From the NCBI RefSeq assembly GCF_056746865.1, contig NZ_CM163382.1: 64,000 nt of DNA; one strand, 5' to 3'. Below the pieces are notes generated by a model. It had not been told where the DNA came from. It worked only from the letters and a program-made list of their open reading frames with translations, and searched no databases. Below are positions 12,497 to 24,613 of this stretch, piece after piece (the stretch's first letter is position 1; the number at the start of each line of letters is the position of its first letter). A program made the translations under genes and the position numbers.

Positions 12497-13891
12497 TCAG
12501 GATTTTTTACGTGAGGCTTTTTTACCCCCGCTAGCTGCGCGTTCAGCTTTGATTTTTTCCAGCAACGCGGCGGCGCTGTTTTCTCCGCTGATCAAATCCG
12601 GGTTTTCGGCCCGCCACTGGGCGGTAAGTTCACCACGGAACGCTTTTGCCAGGATGGATTGCGTCAGGTTGTTGACGCGGGCTAAGGCGTTGTTGACCTG
12701 TTTTTCTATGGTGTCGGCGTAGGCGAAGAGTTGCTCGACGCGGCGAACGATTTCGGCTTGTTCTTTTACTGGAGGTAATAAAACAACTTGGGATTTGATA
12801 TCTTTTCCTGAAATACCTTTTTGACCAGAAGTTGTTTTCACGCAGTTCATCATTGCATTTCGTGCTGAGGGGGATGAAAAAAATATTTCGATATATTCTG
12901 GTAAAGCATCTTTGGTTAATCGAGCTCGAATAAGTTTATCAGGATATAGCAAATTTTGATGTTGTAATTTTTTCAATAACCCACAAACACCAACAAATTC
13001 TAAACTTCCGTTATAGCGAGTAAATAAAAGATCTCCATCTTGTAATTTGTGGCGGTTTAGTTCACTTTCTGAACATTCTAGAAACCGAATATCGTTTTGA
13101 TCTACATGGCCAGCACGTACAGAACTAATGCGTAGTATTGGATGACCAACACCACTTTCATTTGGCTTTGATGAAAGACCATTACGTAATTCAGTTAAGA
13201 TAGATTCAAAATTTAACTTCTTAAATACAGAATGTTGCGGCTCAAAATTACGCCATTTTTCTGTCAATTTTCCATTAACTGCGCCCCCCAATACCGCTTG
13301 ACGAAAACGTTTCAGGATTTGTGGGATTTGCTCAAAACGTGCTTTGGTGCTGTCTACCTGCGCCAGCAGCGTATCGAGTTTTTCAGCGATGATTTTTTGT
13401 TCGGCAAGTGGTGGGATTGGTATATTTATCAAATCAAAGCTTGCCGGCTTAATATTATTAATATTTGCACCAGCAGAAAGTGATGAAATTTTGTTTCGAT
13501 AAAGAGAAGATTTTGTGAAATGAGCAATAAAACCAGAAAATATAAGTTTTTCAGGACGTAATACACCGCAAAATGCGCCGAAACTACATTCAAATGGTAG
13601 ATGCTGATGTGCGGATTTACCAACTACGGATTTGCTCCCTGATGACATTGCAATAACAATATCTTCAGGAGATATTTTTTGATTTTCTTTAACAAGATTT
13701 TTAGGAACAAAAACCAAGTCCGTAGTATCAAACTTGCCATTCTGAATATTGTTCGCACGGATAAGAGGCAAATAATCATCTTTTAGATAATTTATTGCCT
13801 GCTCTTTTTTATACGTTACTCCTCGGATTAGAGTTGTGACCGTAGATACTGGGGCGATAACCCACCCCTCCGGCAATTTCCCCGCACTCAT
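12497..13891 (-). CDS. hsdS: HsdS, type I restriction-modification specificity subunit (EcoKI family)
   Basis: 464-aa translation MSAGKLPEGWVIAPVSTVTTLIRG..; AT-rich target-recognition regions; stop overlaps hsdM. Confidence 0.9.
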   Translation of the reverse strand: MSAGKLPEGWVIAPVSTVTTLIRGVTYKKEQAINYLKDDYLPLIRANNIQNGKFDTTDLVFVPKNLVKENQKISPEDIVIAMSSGSKSVVGKSAHQHLPFECSFGAFCGVLRPEKLIFSGFIAHFTKSSLYRNKISSLSAGANINNIKPASFDLINIPIPPLAEQKIIAEKLDTLLAQVDSTKARFEQIPQILKRFRQAVLGGAVNGKLTEKWRNFEPQHSVFKKLNFESILTELRNGLSSKPNESGVGHPILRISSVRAGHVDQNDIRFLECSESELNRHKLQDGDLLFTRYNGSLEFVGVCGLLKKLQHQNLLYPDKLIRARLTKDALPEYIEIFFSSPSARNAMMNCVKTTSGQKGISGKDIKSQVVLLPPVKEQAEIVRRVEQLFAYADTIEKQVNNALARVNNLTQSILAKAFRGELTAQWRAENPDLISGENSAAALLEKIKAERAASGGKKASRKKS

Positions 13892-15477
13892 TCCTTCACC
13901 CCACCAAACGCTTCTTCCAGCAACTGACGCTGCAAATCGGCCTCATCGCTCGCCCCCAGTTCACGCATCAGCGCATCCAGTTCAGACAGCGCCTGTACCA
14001 GTTCGCCCATCGCTTCTGCCGCTAATACATCCGGCTCCGGCAGGCTGTCGGCATCAATACTGTCTTTATCTTTCAGCCAGGAGATATCCAGCGAATCGGA
14101 TTTTGCGGTGCGGATCCACTCACGGCTGAACTTGCGCCAGCGGCTGGTAGCAAGATGCTGGTCGGTGTTTTTGTTCTCTTCGCTGTCGGCAACTTCCGTC
14201 TCTTCGGCGTTAAAACTCCATTCACCTTCAGTGCGCGGGCTTAAACCGTGCGGGTCTTCGCCATACACGCGCTCAAACGGCTGCAAATGCTCGTCGGTAA
14301 ACGGTGTGCGCTTGCCGAAACTCGGCATATTGGTACGCAGGTCATACACCCACACGTCGTCGGTGCAGTTCTTATCCTGATGCGGGTTCGCCACTGTGCC
14401 TTTGGTAAAGAACAGCACGTTGGTCTTCACGCCCTGCGCGTAAAAAATACCGGTCGGCAGACGCAGAATGGTGTGCAGATGACACTTATCCATCAGGTCA
14501 CGACGGATGTCGGTGCCTTTGCCGCCTTCAAACAACACGTTATCTGGCACCACCACCGCCGCACGACCGCCGGGATGCAGCGTTTCGATAATATGCTGCA
14601 TAAAGCACAGCTGTTTGTTGCTGGTCGGGTGAACAAAGGTGCGGGTAATGTTGGTGCCTGCGGCGCTGCCAAACGGCGGGTTAGTGGCGACAATATGCGC
14701 CTTCGGCAGGTTTTCACCGTCGCTGCCCAGGGTGTTGCCCAGACGGATTGCGCCGCCGTGGTCGAGGTTGCCTTCAATATCGTGCAGCAGGCAGTTCATC
14801 AGTGCCAGACGACGGGTGCCGGGCACCAGTTCGAGGCCGATAAACGCGCGGTGGATCTGGAAATCCTGCGTGTCGCCATCAAGGTCGTCCAGATCATTGG
14901 TTTGCGACTTAACATAGCGGTCGGCTTCAATCAAAAAGCCCGCCGTACCTGCCGCCGGGTCCTGCACCACTTCACGCGGCTGCGGTTTCAGCAGATGAAT
15001 AATGGTTTTAATCAGCGGACGCGGGGTGAAGTACTGGCCTGCACCAGACTTGGTTTCATTCGCGTTCTTCTGCAACAGCCCTTCGTACATATCGCCGAAG
15101 TCATCGCGCGACTTACCGTGCGCGCCGTTGTACCAGTCCAGCGAATCCATATTGCTGACCAGTGCGGTTATTTGTTTCGGCTCGGTGATGGTGGTACTAA
15201 CATTATGAAAAACTGCCTGTACCAGCTTTTTGTCATCTTCGCCTAAATGCACGAGCATTTTTCGGTAGAACTGCAACTGCTCCTGGCCGATGCGGGATTT
15301 CAGGTCATCCCAGCGGTAACCTTCCGGCAGGTATTCCGCTTCCTGACCGGTCTCTTTACACATTTTCAAAAACAGCAGCGAGGCGAGTTCATTGACGTAG
15401 TTTTGATAGGAAACGCCGCCATCGCGCAGGTTGTCGCACAGCTTCCACAGCTTCGCGACCAGATCGTTATTGTTCAT
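13888..15477 (-). CDS. hsdM: HsdM, type I R-M N6-adenine DNA methyltransferase
   Basis: 529-aa translation with NPPF catalytic motif (..HIVATNPPFGSAAG..) and AdoMet-binding region; 4-nt overlap with hsdS. Confidence 0.92.
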   Translation of the reverse strand: MNNNDLVAKLWKLCDNLRDGGVSYQNYVNELASLLFLKMCKETGQEAEYLPEGYRWDDLKSRIGQEQLQFYRKMLVHLGEDDKKLVQAVFHNVSTTITEPKQITALVSNMDSLDWYNGAHGKSRDDFGDMYEGLLQKNANETKSGAGQYFTPRPLIKTIIHLLKPQPREVVQDPAAGTAGFLIEADRYVKSQTNDLDDLDGDTQDFQIHRAFIGLELVPGTRRLALMNCLLHDIEGNLDHGGAIRLGNTLGSDGENLPKAHIVATNPPFGSAAGTNITRTFVHPTSNKQLCFMQHIIETLHPGGRAAVVVPDNVLFEGGKGTDIRRDLMDKCHLHTILRLPTGIFYAQGVKTNVLFFTKGTVANPHQDKNCTDDVWVYDLRTNMPSFGKRTPFTDEHLQPFERVYGEDPHGLSPRTEGEWSFNAEETEVADSEENKNTDQHLATSRWRKFSREWIRTAKSDSLDISWLKDKDSIDADSLPEPDVLAAEAMGELVQALSELDALMRELGASDEADLQRQLLEEAFGGVKE

Positions 15478-15567
15478 TGTGAGTTCCGTAAATTAAGCAG
15501 CGGCCCAAATTCATCGAGCCGCAGAAGAAGAAATTGCCGAGGGTAATATACACAAAATCATTCAGGT

Positions 15568-15662
15568 TGCATCAAGGCGGCAAGTGAGTGAATCCCCGGG
15601 AGCGTACAGAAGTACGTGACCGGGGTGAACGAGCGCAGCCAACGCAGAGGCAGCCTGAAGGA
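15568..15662. repeat. ERIC (IRU)-like intergenic repeat between hsdM and hsdR
   Basis: Contains AAGTGAGTGAATCCCCGGGAGCGTACAGAAGTACGTGACCGGGGTGAACGAGCG, close to the ERIC core GTGAATCCCCAGGAGCTTACAT..GGGGTGAGCG. Confidence 0.65.
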
Positions 15663-15677
15663 TGAAGTGTATACGTG

Positions 15678-18600
15678 TCAGGCCAGCTCGTCCCAGATAT
15701 AATCGCTGAATTTGCCCAGCAGGGTATCGAGATTATCGTCAAAGGTTCTTTGCAGCATCGCCTTCCCGCCGCGACGGTGGAAGTTGCCGGTTTTGAAGAC
15801 ATCGTCGTCGAGCACCACTTTCTCTTTCAGCGCCTGCGCTAAACGATCGAGCCAGCTTAATTGCTCGCTGCTCCAGTCGTTTTCGCCCTTAATGCGCGTC
15901 AGCGCGTGATCGACACGTTCCTCAAACGGTTTCAGCGCATCGCCCACCGCAGCGCGGCGAATATGACCAATCAGCCGGGCGGCGATATCTTCATTGCGCG
16001 TCTCTTTCCATGCTTTGCGCAGGGAAGATTCCTCAAAGTGCTGGCGGTCAAACCACTCCTGTAGCTCGACCAGCCCTTTACGGGTGAGATCGCGCGGGCG
16101 ATTAATAACTGCCTGCAATGCCGGTTGCGCGTTCGGGGAACGTTGCACCAGCGAGTCAAAGGCTTCGAGGAAATCCTGCGGCGTGTCGTAATCACCGTAC
16201 AGCGATTTTACACTCACCACTTCATCGTCGATATCGAGGAAGATCGGCGCATCATTCAGGTTGTTGATGTCCGTTTTCAGCTTTTCCAGACGGGCGATAA
16301 AGCCAGGCAGTTTGTTAAAGACTTCGGCGCTCCAGTGCGGCCCTTTTTCCCGCAGGCGCGAGGCGAAGCCGTTAAAGCCCACCCCCGCCGCGTCCTGGCA
16401 TAGCTCATCCAGACGACGCACCTGTTTATCTATCGTTTCGCTGCGGTCACGGTTAAACGTGGCCAGGCCGATGATGCGCTGGAGCTTCGCCACCAGTTGT
16501 TCATGGCTGTGCTCGGCAAAACTGCGGCCATCCGCTTCGGTGATTTTATAGGTTTCTGAATCGGTAATTTCGTTGACCAGCGTTTGCAGCTCCACCTTAG
16601 GACGCACCACCACCGGACGCATGGTGTCGACGCTCTCCAGCGTGCTGTATATATCGACGCAGTCGAAAATCTTAAAGCTGGTTTTATTCACGTCCGGGCA
16701 CAAGCGCGTGGCGCGGCCTTTCATCTGCTCGTACAGAATACGGCTGCGTACTTTACGCAGGAACACGATGTTACAGATCGACGGAATATCGACGCCGGTC
16801 GTCAGCAGGTCGACGGTTACCACAATATTGGGCAGCCGCTCTTTATTGAAGCGGGTGATCATGGTCTGCACTTTGCGCGCGTCTTTATCGGCATCACCGG
16901 TGATCTTGATTATCGCGTCGTGCTCCAGTTGCGGATACTTTTTCTTGAACGCGGTACGCAACTCTTCCACCACCATATCGGCATGGGCATTGGTGACGCA
17001 GAAGACCAGCGTTTTTTGCGACCCGGTCGGGTCAAGGTAGTTGGTGAGTTCGTTACAGACGGCGCGGTTAAACGCCGGGATCACCAGGCCACGGTTAAAG
17101 TCGGCGACCTCAAAATCCTGATCGTCTTCCAGGGTGTCGTTGATTACTTCCCCCTGCGGGCTGATGCGCTCTACCTGTTCGCCTTTGGAGAGATAAACAC
17201 CCTCCTGTGCGTTGCGGGTGGTGATCTGAATTGGTGGATCCTGGTCGATCAGAAAACCGTCGATAACCGCGGTACGGTAGGTATAACGGTAAACCGGCTC
17301 GCCGAAAATCTGCACCGTATGCAACGCCGGGGTGGCGGTGAGGGCGATTTTTATCGCATCGAAGTGATCGAGAATGCGACGGTAGGCAGAGACATAATCC
17401 AGCTGGCTGCGGAACTGTAGTTCGCCTTCGGTCTGCTCTTTATCGAGAATATAGCCGCGATGCGCTTCATCGACGACGATACAGTCGTAACGGGCCACCG
17501 GCATCGGTTCATCTGATTGCAGGGTGCGTTTCACCAGCGACTGTACGGTGGCAACGTGAATTTTGGTGCTGTCTTCCGGGAATTTATCCGTCAGCCCTTT
17601 AATGTCGAAAATGCTGTTGAAGGTGTCGCCGTTAATACGCGTATCTTCAAACGCCCCCAGCGCCTGCTCGCCAAGAGAACGGCGATCCACAAGGAAGAGA
17701 ATGCGTTTAAAACGCTGGGACTGGATCAGGCGGAACATCATGGCAATTGCGGTGCGGGTTTTACCGGTACCGGTCGCCATCGCCAGCAGGATCTCTTGTT
17801 GACCCTTGACGATTGCCTTTTCCACCGCGCGGACGGCATCTTCCTGATAATAACGCAGGCCCAGCTCGCTCATGCCGGGATTATCGGCAAACCACTGATT
17901 CTGTTTTTGCGGTTCGCTGCCGAGCATTTCCAGCAGCTCTTCCGGGCGATGCCACTCGGGTAAGGCTTTCGACATATTGCGGGTATCACGCACGTCGCGA
18001 TACCAGATGCCACTTTTAGTCTTCATTGCTGCGCGGTATTCGCGCCCGTTGGTGGAGTAGCAGAAGGGGATTTTAAACCGTTGTTGGCCGCTGGAGTCCT
18101 GCCAGCTAGTTTCATACTCCGGCACCGCTTCATGCACTTCATCCGGTGAGTAGTGCTCAAGCAAGGTTTCCCGCAGGAAGCCATTATCGAAGCATTTACT
18201 GTAGCGATACGACTCATTGAGCTTGCCGGGAACGTCGATATTTTTACGTTTCGCCTCTACCACCGCGATGGGTTTGAGGCCGACAAACAGCACATAATCC
18301 GCAAAGCCCTGTTTACCCGTTTCATCTTTCCCGGTCGGCCATTCGGCAATGGCTTTATTGACGCCGGGTTCCGGGCGCGCGCCTTTGGAGAAGCGCAGGG
18401 TTTTGCTATCGGCCTGCCAGCCTGCTTTACGCAGTTGCGCATCAATCAGGAAGCGGCTCTCTTCTTCGCTAAGGTTGAGTGTGCGCTTGATGGCCTGATC
18501 GGTAATTTCTTTGTGGTAAGCCTTACGTTCCTGTTCAGTCTGTTTGGCCAGTTCCGCGTTCTTCTCGGCGAGCTGTGCTTCCAGCGCCGCAAGGCGAGCC

Positions 18601-19190
18601 TGGGTTTGCGCTTCTGTTTCCTGCTGTTTGCCTTCCAGAATAGCGATATAGCCGTTCAGGGCAACCAGCTTCTGCTGTTGCGCTTCGACTTCTGCCTGAG
18701 TCTGCGCTTTTTCTCGCACCTGCTGTTCAAGCTGTTGTTTTAGCGTCAGCACTTCCTGGTGATAGAGGTTCTCGCCACGTTCTGGTAACACAAACACCGG
18801 CACCGGGAAGTCATAATCTTTAGTGACCAGACGGTAGTACCAGACAGCCAGGCGGAACCCGAGTCGCAGGCACATCTGGGCATCGTCGAGATCGTTGTGA
18901 TATTCGTGCACCGCCTGGTTACCAATGCGGCGTAATTTGTGAAATACAGAGAGAATGTTGTCATCAACGAAGGCGATTTTGCCGAGTTCGCGCAGGAGAT
19001 CGTGTTGATTCTCACAAGGGGGGATGTTGAGTAACAGACCAAGATGTTTCGCTGTGGCTTCGCCAAACATACGCATTTTAATTAGCGTCGTGTTGGGATC
19101 ATCCGGGTAGTTATTTTCCGCCGCACAGGCGATGGCATAAGTGAAGTCGTTGACGCCCTTCAGGAATTCGAAGTTGGATTTATTCATCAT
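15678..19190 (-). CDS. hsdR: HsdR, type I R-M restriction endonuclease/translocase subunit
   Basis: 1170-aa translation with DEAD-like helicase motifs (AMATGTGKT, VVDEAH) and N-terminal nuclease region. Confidence 0.92.
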   Translation of the reverse strand: MMNKSNFEFLKGVNDFTYAIACAAENNYPDDPNTTLIKMRMFGEATAKHLGLLLNIPPCENQHDLLRELGKIAFVDDNILSVFHKLRRIGNQAVHEYHNDLDDAQMCLRLGFRLAVWYYRLVTKDYDFPVPVFVLPERGENLYHQEVLTLKQQLEQQVREKAQTQAEVEAQQQKLVALNGYIAILEGKQQETEAQTQARLAALEAQLAEKNAELAKQTEQERKAYHKEITDQAIKRTLNLSEEESRFLIDAQLRKAGWQADSKTLRFSKGARPEPGVNKAIAEWPTGKDETGKQGFADYVLFVGLKPIAVVEAKRKNIDVPGKLNESYRYSKCFDNGFLRETLLEHYSPDEVHEAVPEYETSWQDSSGQQRFKIPFCYSTNGREYRAAMKTKSGIWYRDVRDTRNMSKALPEWHRPEELLEMLGSEPQKQNQWFADNPGMSELGLRYYQEDAVRAVEKAIVKGQQEILLAMATGTGKTRTAIAMMFRLIQSQRFKRILFLVDRRSLGEQALGAFEDTRINGDTFNSIFDIKGLTDKFPEDSTKIHVATVQSLVKRTLQSDEPMPVARYDCIVVDEAHRGYILDKEQTEGELQFRSQLDYVSAYRRILDHFDAIKIALTATPALHTVQIFGEPVYRYTYRTAVIDGFLIDQDPPIQITTRNAQEGVYLSKGEQVERISPQGEVINDTLEDDQDFEVADFNRGLVIPAFNRAVCNELTNYLDPTGSQKTLVFCVTNAHADMVVEELRTAFKKKYPQLEHDAIIKITGDADKDARKVQTMITRFNKERLPNIVVTVDLLTTGVDIPSICNIVFLRKVRSRILYEQMKGRATRLCPDVNKTSFKIFDCVDIYSTLESVDTMRPVVVRPKVELQTLVNEITDSETYKITEADGRSFAEHSHEQLVAKLQRIIGLATFNRDRSETIDKQVRRLDELCQDAAGVGFNGFASRLREKGPHWSAEVFNKLPGFIARLEKLKTDINNLNDAPIFLDIDDEVVSVKSLYGDYDTPQDFLEAFDSLVQRSPNAQPALQAVINRPRDLTRKGLVELQEWFDRQHFEESSLRKAWKETRNEDIAARLIGHIRRAAVGDALKPFEERVDHALTRIKGENDWSSEQLSWLDRLAQALKEKVVLDDDVFKTGNFHRRGGKAMLQRTFDDNLDTLLGKFSDYIWDELA

Positions 19191-21557: not shown

Positions 21558-23708
21558 TTAGTGGTGCGAAGAGATCTTCACGCCGCCTTCCGGGATTGGA
21601 ACGTACGGTGTTTCTTTGTCAGTACGTTTGTCGCTGTTACGCACCTTCAGCCAGGTTTTGAAACCGTAGAAGATGATGCTGTACACCACAATCAGGAACA
21701 GAATACTCAGGCCCGCGTTGGTGTAGTTGTTCACAACAATGTGGTTCATGTTGGCAATCTGCTGCGCCGTCAGGTCAGTACCGTTAGCAATCTTCTCTTT
21801 GTACTGGCTTGCCATGTAGAAGAAGCCTTCCATCTGTGGGTTGGTGCTGAACAGTTTCAGACCCAGTGCCCAGGTGGTGCAGATAAGCAGCCATACAGCC
21901 GGAACAACGGTAACCCAGATGTATTGGGTGCGCTTCATCTTAATCAGCACAACGGTGCCCAGTACCAGCGCCACGGCTGCCAGCATCTGGTTGGAGATAC
22001 CGAACAGCGGCCACAGGCTCTTAACGCCGCCCAGCGGATCGACCACGCCCTGATACAGCAGGTAGCCCCACAGACCCACACAGCCCGCAGTACCGATGAT
22101 ACCGGCAACCAGAGAGTCGGTTTTTTTCAGGAACGGGATGAAGTTACCCAGCAGGTCTTGCAGCATAAAGCGGCCAGAACGGGTACCCGCATCCAGCGCG
22201 GTCAGGATGAACAGGGCTTCGAACAGAATACCGAAGTGATACCAGAAGCCCATGTCAGCCATCGGCAGCACTTTGTGGAACACATGAGCGATACCTACCG
22301 CCAGCGTCGGCGCACCACCTGCACGGTTCAGGACAGAAGGCTCACCAATGTCTTTCGCGGTTTGCAGGATCTGCTCTGGCGAAATCACGAAGCCCCAGGA
22401 GCTGACGGTTGCCGCCGCGTGTGCGGTAACGTCTTTCAGCTGCGCCATGATGATCGGCGCGTTCTCGCCACCCATTTCATGCAGGTTAGGCATGGTGATG
22501 CCAAGGCCAGCAGGCGGGGTATTCATCGCGAAGTAAAGACCCGGTTCGATGATGGACGCAGCAACCAGCGCCATAATCGCCACGAAGGACTCCATCAGCA
22601 TTGCGCCGTAGCCAATGAAACGCGCGTCGGTTTCATTAGCCAGCAGTTTCGGCGTCGTACCGGAAGAGATCAGCGCGTGGAAGCCAGATACCGCACCACA
22701 GGCGATGGTGATGAACAGGAACGGGAACAGAGCGCCTTTCCACAGCGGGCCAGTACCGTCAATGTACTGGGTCATCGCAGGCATTTTCAGTTCCGGGTTC
22801 AGCACCACGATACCCAGCGCCAGGCCGACGATAACGCCGATTTTCAGGAAGGTTGCCAGATAGTCGCGCGGTGCGAGGATCAGCCACACCGGCAGCAGTG
22901 CGGAAACAAACGCATAGCCAATCAGCGCGAAGGTAATGGTGGTGTCTTTAAAGGTCAGTGCCGGACCCCAGTACGGATCGTGAGCAATCACGCCACCGAA
23001 GTAGATAGAGGCAACCAGCAGCACGATACCAATGACAGAGACTTCACCCACACGCCCCGGACGGATAAAGCGCATGTAGATACCCATAAACAGCGCAATC
23101 GGTACGGTTGAGCAAACGGTGAAAACACCCCACGGGCTTTCGGCCAGGGCTTTAACCACAATCAGCGCCAGGACGGCAAGGATGATGATCATGATTAAGA
23201 AACAGCCAAACAGCGCGATAGTCCCCGGTACTGGTCCCATCTCTTCTTTGATCATCTCACCGAGAGATGCGCCGTTACGGCGAGAGGAGATAAACAGCAC
23301 CATAAAGTCCTGTACCGCACCGGCCAGTACTACCCCCGCCAGCAGCCACAGCGTGCCAGGTAGGTAGCCCATCTGCGCGGCGAGAACCGGACCAACCAGC
23401 GGACCAGCACCGGCGATAGCGGCGAAGTGGTGACCAAACAACACGTAACGGTTGGTCGGAACGTAGTTCAGACCGTCGTTGTTAATAACCGCAGGCGTCG
23501 CGCGCGTGGGGTCGAGTTTCATCACCTTCTGGGCGATGTACAAACTGTAGTAGCGATACGCCACCAGATACACCGACACAGAGGCGACCACGATCCACAG
23601 GGCGCTGACGTGCTCCCCCCGACGTAATGCAACTACCGCGAGGCAGAATGCACCGATGATTCCGAGAATCACCCAGGGTATGTGCTTGAATAGTTTTTTC
23701 GTATCCAT
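21558..23708 (-). CDS. btsT: BtsT (YjiY), CstA-family pyruvate/H+ symporter
   Basis: 716-aa polytopic membrane protein starting MDTKKLFKHIPWVILGIIG.. Confidence 0.9.
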   Translation of the reverse strand: MDTKKLFKHIPWVILGIIGAFCLAVVALRRGEHVSALWIVVASVSVYLVAYRYYSLYIAQKVMKLDPTRATPAVINNDGLNYVPTNRYVLFGHHFAAIAGAGPLVGPVLAAQMGYLPGTLWLLAGVVLAGAVQDFMVLFISSRRNGASLGEMIKEEMGPVPGTIALFGCFLIMIIILAVLALIVVKALAESPWGVFTVCSTVPIALFMGIYMRFIRPGRVGEVSVIGIVLLVASIYFGGVIAHDPYWGPALTFKDTTITFALIGYAFVSALLPVWLILAPRDYLATFLKIGVIVGLALGIVVLNPELKMPAMTQYIDGTGPLWKGALFPFLFITIACGAVSGFHALISSGTTPKLLANETDARFIGYGAMLMESFVAIMALVAASIIEPGLYFAMNTPPAGLGITMPNLHEMGGENAPIIMAQLKDVTAHAAATVSSWGFVISPEQILQTAKDIGEPSVLNRAGGAPTLAVGIAHVFHKVLPMADMGFWYHFGILFEALFILTALDAGTRSGRFMLQDLLGNFIPFLKKTDSLVAGIIGTAGCVGLWGYLLYQGVVDPLGGVKSLWPLFGISNQMLAAVALVLGTVVLIKMKRTQYIWVTVVPAVWLLICTTWALGLKLFSTNPQMEGFFYMASQYKEKIANGTDLTAQQIANMNHIVVNNYTNAGLSILFLIVVYSIIFYGFKTWLKVRNSDKRTDKETPYVPIPEGGVKISSHH

Positions 23709-23743
23709 AGTAAAACCTGGCATTTTACTCGTCGTCTTTTGGC

Positions 23744-23830
23744 TTACAGGTGCGGCAGCTGCGTTCGTTCACCTCTGACACTTACTGTTGTAAGCTCCCG
23801 GGGATTCACTCACTTGCTGCCTTCCTGCAA
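23744..23830. repeat. ERIC (IRU)-like repeat in the btsT leader, inverted relative to the copy at 15568-15662
   Basis: GCTCCCGGGGATTCACTCACTTGC is the exact reverse complement of the core at 15574-15597; about 85 percent identity over ~80 bp. Confidence 0.65.
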
Positions 23831-23966
23831 ACCAAAATCCATAGAGTAATTTGTTAATCATAGGCCGAAGCCGTTCTAGGTTTGCGTTGCGTTTGAGGAG
23901 GTAAATTGACCGCTATCCTGCAGTGATGTTGCCAGAGATACGCGCGCGTAAAGTAAGGTAAATAAC

Positions 23967-24015
23967 TGAGTGGTTATTTTAGGGATGTAAGCGGTCAGGA
24001 ATGGCGGTGAGCGGT
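23967..24015 (-). promoter_or_regulatory. Putative BtsR (YehT) operator: three direct repeats ACC(G/A)CT(C/T)A spaced 12-13 bp, upstream of btsT
   Basis: On the btsT strand: ACCGCTCA (24015-24008), ACCGCTTA (23995-23988), ACCACTCA (23974-23967); matches the published YehT/BtsR half-site as I recall it. Confidence 0.5.
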
Positions 24016-24043
24016 TGGGCAAGAATTATTCATCGGGTGGATA

Positions 24044-24059
24044 TGTGATTGAGATCACA
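24044..24059. promoter_or_regulatory. Consensus CRP site TGTGA-N6-TCACA
   Basis: tgtgattgagatcaca, perfect palindromic CRP half-sites; lies upstream of btsT and just downstream of the hpaC terminator. Confidence 0.55.
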
Positions 24060-24065
24060 ATAAAA

Positions 24066-24096
24066 ATGCCCCTTCGACGAATGCGTGAAGGGGCTG
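24066..24096 (-). terminator. Rho-independent terminator after hpaC
   Basis: gccccttc..gaaggggc stem-loop directly 3-prime of the hpaC stop. Confidence 0.55.
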
Positions 24097-24100
24097 GAGC

Positions 24101-24613
24101 TTAAATCGCAGCTTCCATTTCCAGCATCACCGGATGGAAACGGCGTTTAAAGTAGATAAGTCCGTGACCTTCTGCACTGAGGATGATGTTTTTAATCTCC
24201 ACCAGATACACCAGATGTGTGCCAATTGCCTGCACATCGCGGATCTCACCTTCAAGACTGGCCAGCGAACCTTTTAGCACCGGCTGCGCCAGCGGACCTT
24301 TTTGCCAGCATGAGAGGCTAAAACGCTCTTCCATCGCCATGCCTGTCATGCCCGCGAAGTGGCGTGCCATCAGTTCCTGCTCATGGTTGAGGACGTTGAC
24401 GCACAACTTGCCGTTGCCCTGAAAAACCGGGTTCATCGCACTGTTGGCGTTAATGCACACCATCAGCGACGGTGGTGTATCCGTGACCGAGCAGACAGCC
24501 GTTGCCGTAATCCCGCATTGTCCGGTGTCGCCCTCGGTGGTGATAATATTTACCGCTGCCGACAGGCTGGCCATCGCGTCACGAAAGCGCAGGCGTTGTT
24601 CATCTAATTGCAT
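24101..24613 (-). CDS. hpaC: HpaC, NAD(P)H-flavin oxidoreductase component of 4-hydroxyphenylacetate 3-monooxygenase
   Basis: 170-aa translation; position immediately after hpaB; flavin reductase family. Confidence 0.85.
   Translation of the reverse strand: MQLDEQRLRFRDAMASLSAAVNIITTEGDTGQCGITATAVCSVTDTPPSLMVCINANSAMNPVFQGNGKLCVNVLNHEQELMARHFAGMTGMAMEERFSLSCWQKGPLAQPVLKGSLASLEGEIRDVQAIGTHLVYLVEIKNIILSAEGHGLIYFKRRFHPVMLEMEAAI

Follow-up and report, generated by a model that had tools for sequence, protein, structure and literature searches.

Putative BtsR- and CRP-type control region of btsT (yjiY) next to hpaBC, with an ERIC element in the predicted leader

Between hpaC and btsT (yjiY), both encoded on the minus strand of the 64,000-nt stretch of DNA analysed here (the window), lies a closely packed series of putative control elements (Table 1). 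Read in the direction of btsT, the series consists of the intrinsic terminator of hpaBC, a CRP site, three BtsR-type repeats named R1 to R3, an extended -10 element and a long predicted leader into which an ERIC element is inserted. With the annotated start of btsT at the ATG at position 23708, the CRP site and the repeats are located 259-351 bp upstream of the gene, in agreement with a preliminary description made from the DNA letters, which had given a distance of about 260-350 bp. The same description had placed the motifs within about 45 bp of the hpaC terminator; its distances are correct, as are the coordinates and spacings, and the terminator in fact runs directly into the CRP site, as its U-tract AUUUUUAUU ends on the first T of this site. 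An additional in-frame ATG was noticed at 23721-23723, 15 nt 5′ of the annotated start codon (23706-23708). It gives an open reading frame of 721 aa (start at 23723 in the ORF list) compared to the annotated 716 aa, and K-12 has the same ATG.

Table 1. Features of the btsT-hpaC region with their window coordinates and the basis of their assignment.
Feature	Position	Strand	Basis or remark
btsT (yjiY) coding sequence, pyruvate/H+ symporter	21558-23708	-	ORF list; start from RefSeq annotation of the identical locus
Shine-Dalgarno AGG	23718-23716	-	within btsT leader
btsT 5′ leader, predicted	23709-23919	-	from -10 position and annotated start; ~211 nt vs. ~88 nt in K-12
ERIC/IRU element, 119 bp	23728-23846	-	insertion relative to K-12; TA flanks at 23847-23848 and 23726-23727
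Extended -10 TGgCAACAT, predicted	23926-23934	-	-10 at 23931-23926, TG at 23934-23933; cross-species conservation
R3, proximal BtsR-type repeat ACCACTCA	23967-23974	-	pattern match; 13 bp after R2; identical to K-12
R2, BtsR-type repeat ACCGCTTA	23988-23995	-	pattern match; identical to K-12
R1, distal BtsR-type repeat ACCGCTCA	24008-24015	-	pattern match; K-12 equivalent is GCCGCTCA
CRP site TGTGATCTCAATCACA (btsT direction)	24044-24059	.	perfect TGTGA-N6-TCACA; begins 44 bp upstream of R1
hpaBC intrinsic terminator	24059-24094	-	hairpin 24094-24068 (dG -18 kcal/mol, z -3.4), then U-tract 24067-24059
hpaC (4-hydroxyphenylacetate 3-monooxygenase reductase subunit)	24101-24613	-	stop codon 24101-24103; last hpa-cluster gene on the btsT side

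The arrangement reported in the preliminary description, i.e. three copies of ACC(G/A)CT(C/T)A spaced 12-13 bp apart in the btsT direction beside a perfect TGTGA-N6-TCACA, was recovered by pattern scanning. On the minus strand, the pattern ACCRCTYA gave the three perfect copies with gaps of 12 and 13 bp, and TGTGA-N6-TCACA occurs only once in the 64-kb window (0.02 occurrences expected), at the position given in Table 1. By itself, the 8-mer shows no enrichment in the window (10 matches vs. 6.2 expected). The in-phase triple is well above chance, with 0 mismatches in the window and at least 5 in the best of 360 shuffles of btsT upstream regions. The YehT site described by Kraxenberger in 2012 reportedly consists of two direct copies of ACC[G/A]CT[C/T]A separated by 13 bp, and R2 and R3 with the 13 bp between them have the direct-repeat form of such a BtsR/YehT (LytTR) site. 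PMC4222967, a secondary source, likewise gives 13 bp as the spacer within the direct repeat bound by YehT, which corresponds to the R2-R3 arrangement.

The assignment of the repeats to the BtsR type, also made in the preliminary description, is borne out by a 58-nt oligonucleotide designated 'yjiY YehT bs' that was used by the Jung laboratory (PMC4847170). It was placed on the MG1655 genome at 4591468-4591411, corresponding to -189 to -132 from the ATG, where it covers all three copies including R1. The window agrees with the oligonucleotide at 47 of 58 positions; both are identical over R2-R3 and the flank, and the differences are confined to the distal 25 bp. The distal copy R1 matches the pattern at 8 of 8 positions in the window and at 7 of 8 in K-12. 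Some Citrobacter and Pseudocitrobacter (loci L010, L012 and L013) have, as a fourth copy in phase, a repeat-like sequence (CCCGCTCA, CCCACTCA or CCCACTTA) 19-20 bp 5′ of R1, at about -190 to -202 from the ATG. It is absent from this place in E. coli. The triple repeats and the CRP site are supported as control elements of btsT, with binding predicted for the window allele.

The CRP site is separated from R1 by 28 bp and matches the 22-bp consensus at 17 of 22 positions. Its centre would lie near -132 relative to the predicted transcription start, a large distance for simple class I activation. The btsSR genes are located outside the window. In K-12, transcription of btsT, reported as the sole target of BtsS/BtsR, is known to require both BtsS/BtsR and cAMP-CRP (PMC5431176, PMC5936718), the activity of its promoter is abolished by deletion of crp (PMC7730263), and in addition to the dependence on cAMP-CRP, repression by LeuO and control by CsrA have been described (PMC5936718).

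For the comparison with the K-12 intergenic region, which had been proposed in the preliminary description, E. coli BM28 served as reference, since its sequence agrees with that of MG1655 at all of the 501 bp compared. The segment composed of R2, the 13-bp spacer and R3 is identical to K-12 (29/29), and the following 110 bp agree at 105 positions. The spacing of the CRP site, R1, R2 and R3 is that of K-12 without any gap. BLAST similarity to K-12 stops at 24014, inside the control region (between R1 and R2). On the distal side, the CRP core (14/16) and R1 (7/8) stand out from the CRP-R1 spacer (8/28), the R1-R2 spacer (6/12) and the 30 bp beyond the CRP site (6/30), and the flanks of the CRP core are unalignable. 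Judged by these alignments, the CRP site and R1 belong to another allele, which cannot be aligned with K-12 here but has both sites at the same spacing. The preliminary description of the btsT control region as intact beside hpa therefore holds for one part only: as all four sites are found at the K-12 spacing, the protein-binding part is intact, but the region as a whole differs from K-12 by the ERIC element in the leader and by the breakpoint within the region. On the tsr side, homology to K-12 restarts at window position 35336, so that about 11.3 kb stand in place of 87-133 bp of K-12.

The island-type distal allele including the terminator stem is not limited to hpa-bearing loci. It was also found in E. 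coli 2020CK-00188 (locus L003, 1-2800), in which genes for an amino-acid deaminase and an N-acyl-D-amino-acid deacylase are located upstream of btsT and an ERIC element is missing. The tsr-adjacent strain A32 is a mosaic of both distal alleles, and the island-type spacer within the CRP site (CTCA) is the common form in other genera. About 160 genomes without hpaC match the same terminator arm and CRP segment (window 24040-24077), L003 being the single locus analysed among them, which marks the tsr-btsT interval as a variable spot.

In order to compare the region across species, a genome collection was scanned with the N-terminus of BtsT, and btsT loci were obtained from 37 Enterobacterales species as well as from Pseudomonas and others. 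The best triple ACCRCTYA array with a period of 20-21 bp had 0-4 mismatches in 36/36 Enterobacterales species, compared to at least 5 mismatches in all 360 shuffles. R1, the first of the three repeats, is kept at the 20-21 bp phase in nearly all of the 36 species. A CRP-like site with at most 2 mismatches was present 43-45 bp upstream of R1 in 23 of the 36 species and in 0 of 273 shuffles, and this fixed offset argues for a constrained geometry without pointing to a particular mechanism. BtsR motifs have already been reported as conserved across gamma-proteobacteria (PMC5552118). The comparison of sequences shows that the same sites are present in the same geometry and are under purifying selection; the comparison of two alleles combined with that of many species provides clean evidence of selection on the distal repeat and on the far-upstream CRP site.

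In the window, btsT is annotated downstream of the repeats, and a conserved -10-like element of the TGnCAxxAT type follows R3. Its hexamer, with A at position 2 and T at position 6 and mostly preceded by TG, is located 33-36 nt past R3 in 30 of 34 sequences. The E. coli form is CAACAT; Xenorhabdus and Morganella have TATCAT, and Budvicia has TATTAT. From its position in the window, we infer that btsT transcription starts near 23919, which would place R3 at about -55 to -48. A generic sigma-70 promoter scan found no promoter in the region, as expected for an activator-dependent promoter. The sequence TGGCAACATCACTGCA (23934-23919, minus strand) also resembles the -24/-12 elements of a sigma-54 promoter (TGGCAC-N5-TTGCA). 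This reading was rejected, as the GC of the -12 element is replaced by ACA in K-12, the element is missing in other genera and BtsR is no enhancer-binding protein; we infer instead that TGGCAACATCACTGCA contains the extended -10 element. The literature search returned no usable mapped btsT start site, no CsrA or yjiY-leader data and no description of the hpa/tsr/yjiY context, and the RefSeq annotation of MG1655 holds no regulatory features in the region upstream of btsT. E. coli ABWA45 (locus L004, 1160-2500) has an IS3-family insertion in the btsT leader, directly behind GGTCAATTTACCTC, by which the intact CRP/BtsR promoter and btsT are kept about 1.3 kb apart.

Downstream of the promoter, the window differs from K-12 by a 119-bp insertion in the leader, whose 3′ end is 20 nt before the btsT start codon. 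This insertion is an ERIC/IRU element, as concluded from its hairpin, its primer matches, a second copy in the window and its multi-copy dispersal. It folds as one long hairpin (dG -55.5 kcal/mol, z -3.9), and the ERIC PCR primers match it back-to-back at 20/22 and 17/22 positions. The second ERIC-like copy is located at about 15555-15670, between the minus-strand ORFs 13888-15477 and 15678-19190, and is 85% identical to the btsT copy over 73 bp. The element is a dispersed repeat: 5425 of 5426 E. coli genomes contain it, at a median of 9 places each, and the matches listed do not overlap any annotated feature. An Rfam scan revealed no riboswitch or known leader RNA in the region; its only match, a weak and sub-threshold one to V_AS5, has the exact ends of the ERIC element. 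The ERIC/IRU family (PMC3184786) is about 127 bp long, with terminal inverted repeats forming a long hairpin, TA flanks, dispersal and an intergenic location, and the 119-bp element agrees with this description. Owing to the insertion, the binding sites are located 260-350 bp from the ATG instead of about 145-230 bp. According to the folding prediction, the ERIC element pairs with itself and the ribosome binding site is masked no more than in K-12; masking of this site by the element was considered and is not supported by the predicted folding. Within the element, the window has GTGTCAGAGGTG at 23770-23781, where four other hpa+ strains and E. albertii have GTGACAGGGGTG; the changes in the central stem are strain-specific. 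In strain EC21, the opposite ERIC arm has a 3-bp deletion.

The hpa/ERIC haplotype is common. Among 5,426 complete E. coli genomes, the hpaC-CRP junction was found in 2,065 and the ERIC element at btsT in 2,062, with both present in 2,060; about 38% of the genomes carry the haplotype and the two features are tightly linked. Across species they are not linked, since in E. albertii the same ERIC element (98% over 119 bp) accompanies a distal promoter of the tsr type. The four protein sites do not vary among five diverse hpa+ strains, whose substitutions are located in the spacers, the terminator and the ERIC element. The hairpin of the terminator behind hpaC was not listed by a simple terminator scan because its stem is bulged. 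The genes hpaB-hpaC are also located directly upstream of btsT in Pseudocitrobacter faecalis (L010), Enterobacter cloacae (L015) and E. asburiae (L016), and because of this adjacency in other genera the hpa cluster may be ancestral at this place. It has been suggested that K-12 lost an ancestral hpa cluster (PMC7201708). What had been called an hpa insertion in the preliminary description may therefore be a loss in K-12.

Taken together, the segment 23926-24059 is very probably the promoter and regulatory region of btsT, of the published BtsR/YehT and cAMP-CRP type and putative for this allele. In K-12, the BtsS/BtsR system (YehU/YehT) is reported to be activated at the exhaustion of nutrients in the presence of external pyruvate, which is sensed by BtsS; BtsR, which belongs to the LytTR family, binds direct repeats in the promoter of btsT and activates the gene. 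CRP is required as well (PMC5936718, PMC5431176), leading to catabolite repression. In the window, BtsR would occupy R1-R3, which are two helical turns apart on one face of the DNA, just 5′ of the weak extended -10 element, and the CRP site 44 bp upstream of R1 would be the one responsible for the cAMP-CRP requirement. In the hpa-bearing strain type, the site array is unchanged in content and spacing. The btsT transcript would carry the 119-bp ERIC hairpin, located about 20 nt before the start codon, given presumed read-through of the element, and the hpaBC terminator ending at the edge of the CRP site would probably insulate btsT from hpa transcription.

Other readings of the sites were weighed against this one. 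A chance origin of the motifs, at an AT-rich junction that remained after an island insertion, is hardly conceivable: the lack of enrichment of the single 8-mer would suit such an origin, but the phase of the copies, their identity with K-12 and the conservation across species exclude chance. It is very improbable, too, that the CRP site serves the neighbouring genes (tsr in K-12, the hpa genes here) and not btsT. The K-12 site is located in the divergent tsr-btsT intergenic region and the hpa genes are catabolite-repressed, both of which would agree with such a role. However, the site in the window follows the hpaC terminator, with btsT as the only gene that it can face, its offset of 43-45 bp to R1 holds with tsr, hpaC or another upstream neighbour, and the loss of btsT promoter activity upon crp deletion (PMC7730263) connects CRP to btsT itself. 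More weight, although it is still unlikely, has to be given to the reading that only R2 and R3 with their 13-bp spacer form the functional BtsR site and that R1 is a non-functional resemblance. The YehT site is cited in PMC4222967, a secondary source, as a single direct repeat spaced by 13 bp, R1 is imperfect in K-12 and the R1-R2 gap is 12 bp, not 13. On the other hand, R1 is kept in phase in nearly all of the 36 species, survives in an E. coli allele that is unalignable with K-12 around it and is included in the binding-site oligonucleotide of the Jung laboratory (PMC4847170), and some species have a fourth in-phase copy.

A different kind of objection concerns the output of the btsT control region and not its architecture. 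With the array intact, btsT expression in the hpa haplotype could still differ from K-12 if the ERIC insertion altered it, for example by processing with RNase E, by a change in mRNA stability or by additional GGA sites for CsrA. We regard this as a tentative possibility. In its favour, a 119-bp hairpin is located inside the predicted leader 20 nt from the start codon, ERIC elements in transcripts are reported to change mRNA stability via RNase E (reviewed in PMC3184786), btsT is under CsrA control (PMC7730263, PMC5936718) and the element brings extra GGA motifs. Against it, the element self-pairs in the predicted folds and leaves the ribosome binding site no more masked than in K-12, it lacks a terminator-like U-tract, and a haplotype present in 38% of the genomes and also, as regards the ERIC element, in E. 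albertii is at least tolerated. The combined proposal that the ERIC hairpin alters the post-transcriptional control of btsT in the hpa haplotype and in E. albertii (through RNase E, half-life or access of CsrA) and that R1 is a third functional BtsR site, giving a three-sited array in place of the published two-copy repeat, is at present doubtful. If it were true, one would expect E. coli B, C and W, among others, to scavenge pyruvate with kinetics unlike those of K-12 despite an identical BtsR/CRP array.

For the annotation of genomes, the analysis is of use since hpa-bearing E. coli lineages retain the complete activator array of btsT. Results obtained with K-12 promoter fragments may apply only in part to hpa+ strains, a type reported for B, C and W, because these have an additional 119-bp structured leader element and a different allele in the distal third of the promoter. 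The BtsR repeats, the dependence on CRP and the conservation of the motifs in gamma-proteobacteria are already published; modestly new, and descriptive, are the presence of an ERIC copy within the leader, the mosaic nature of the distal allele and the comparative support for the third BtsR repeat and for the fixed CRP offset.

The closest known systems include the btsT promoter of K-12 MG1655 (Kraxenberger et al. 2012; Behr et al. 2016, 2017), with the same gene, the same order of elements and the same CRP-R1-R2-R3 spacing. It differs from the window in that R1 is perfect in the latter, that the upstream neighbour is the hpaC terminator and not the tsr promoter region, and that only the window has an ERIC element in the leader. 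The site of YpdB (PyrR) in the yhjX promoter and the LytTR sites of AgrA, VirR and AlgR likewise consist of short direct repeats with a spacer of about one turn just upstream of the core promoter, but the YpdB motif GGCATTTCAT is absent at the window site, which has three in-phase copies instead of two. The insertion in the leader is like the ERIC/IRU elements of Enterobacteriaceae (Sharples and Lloyd 1990; Hulton et al. 1991) in its length of about 120 bp, its terminal inverted repeats, its TA flanks, its intergenic location and its multiple copies; the copy at btsT is polymorphic: K-12 lacks it, and E. albertii and about 38% of E. coli genomes have it. The promoter of cstA, which encodes a paralogous pyruvate transporter, is also CRP-dependent with an unusually distant CRP site and subject to CsrA control at the level of translation (PMC7730263), but unlike btsT it lacks BtsR repeats and is subject to repression by Fis (PMC7730263).
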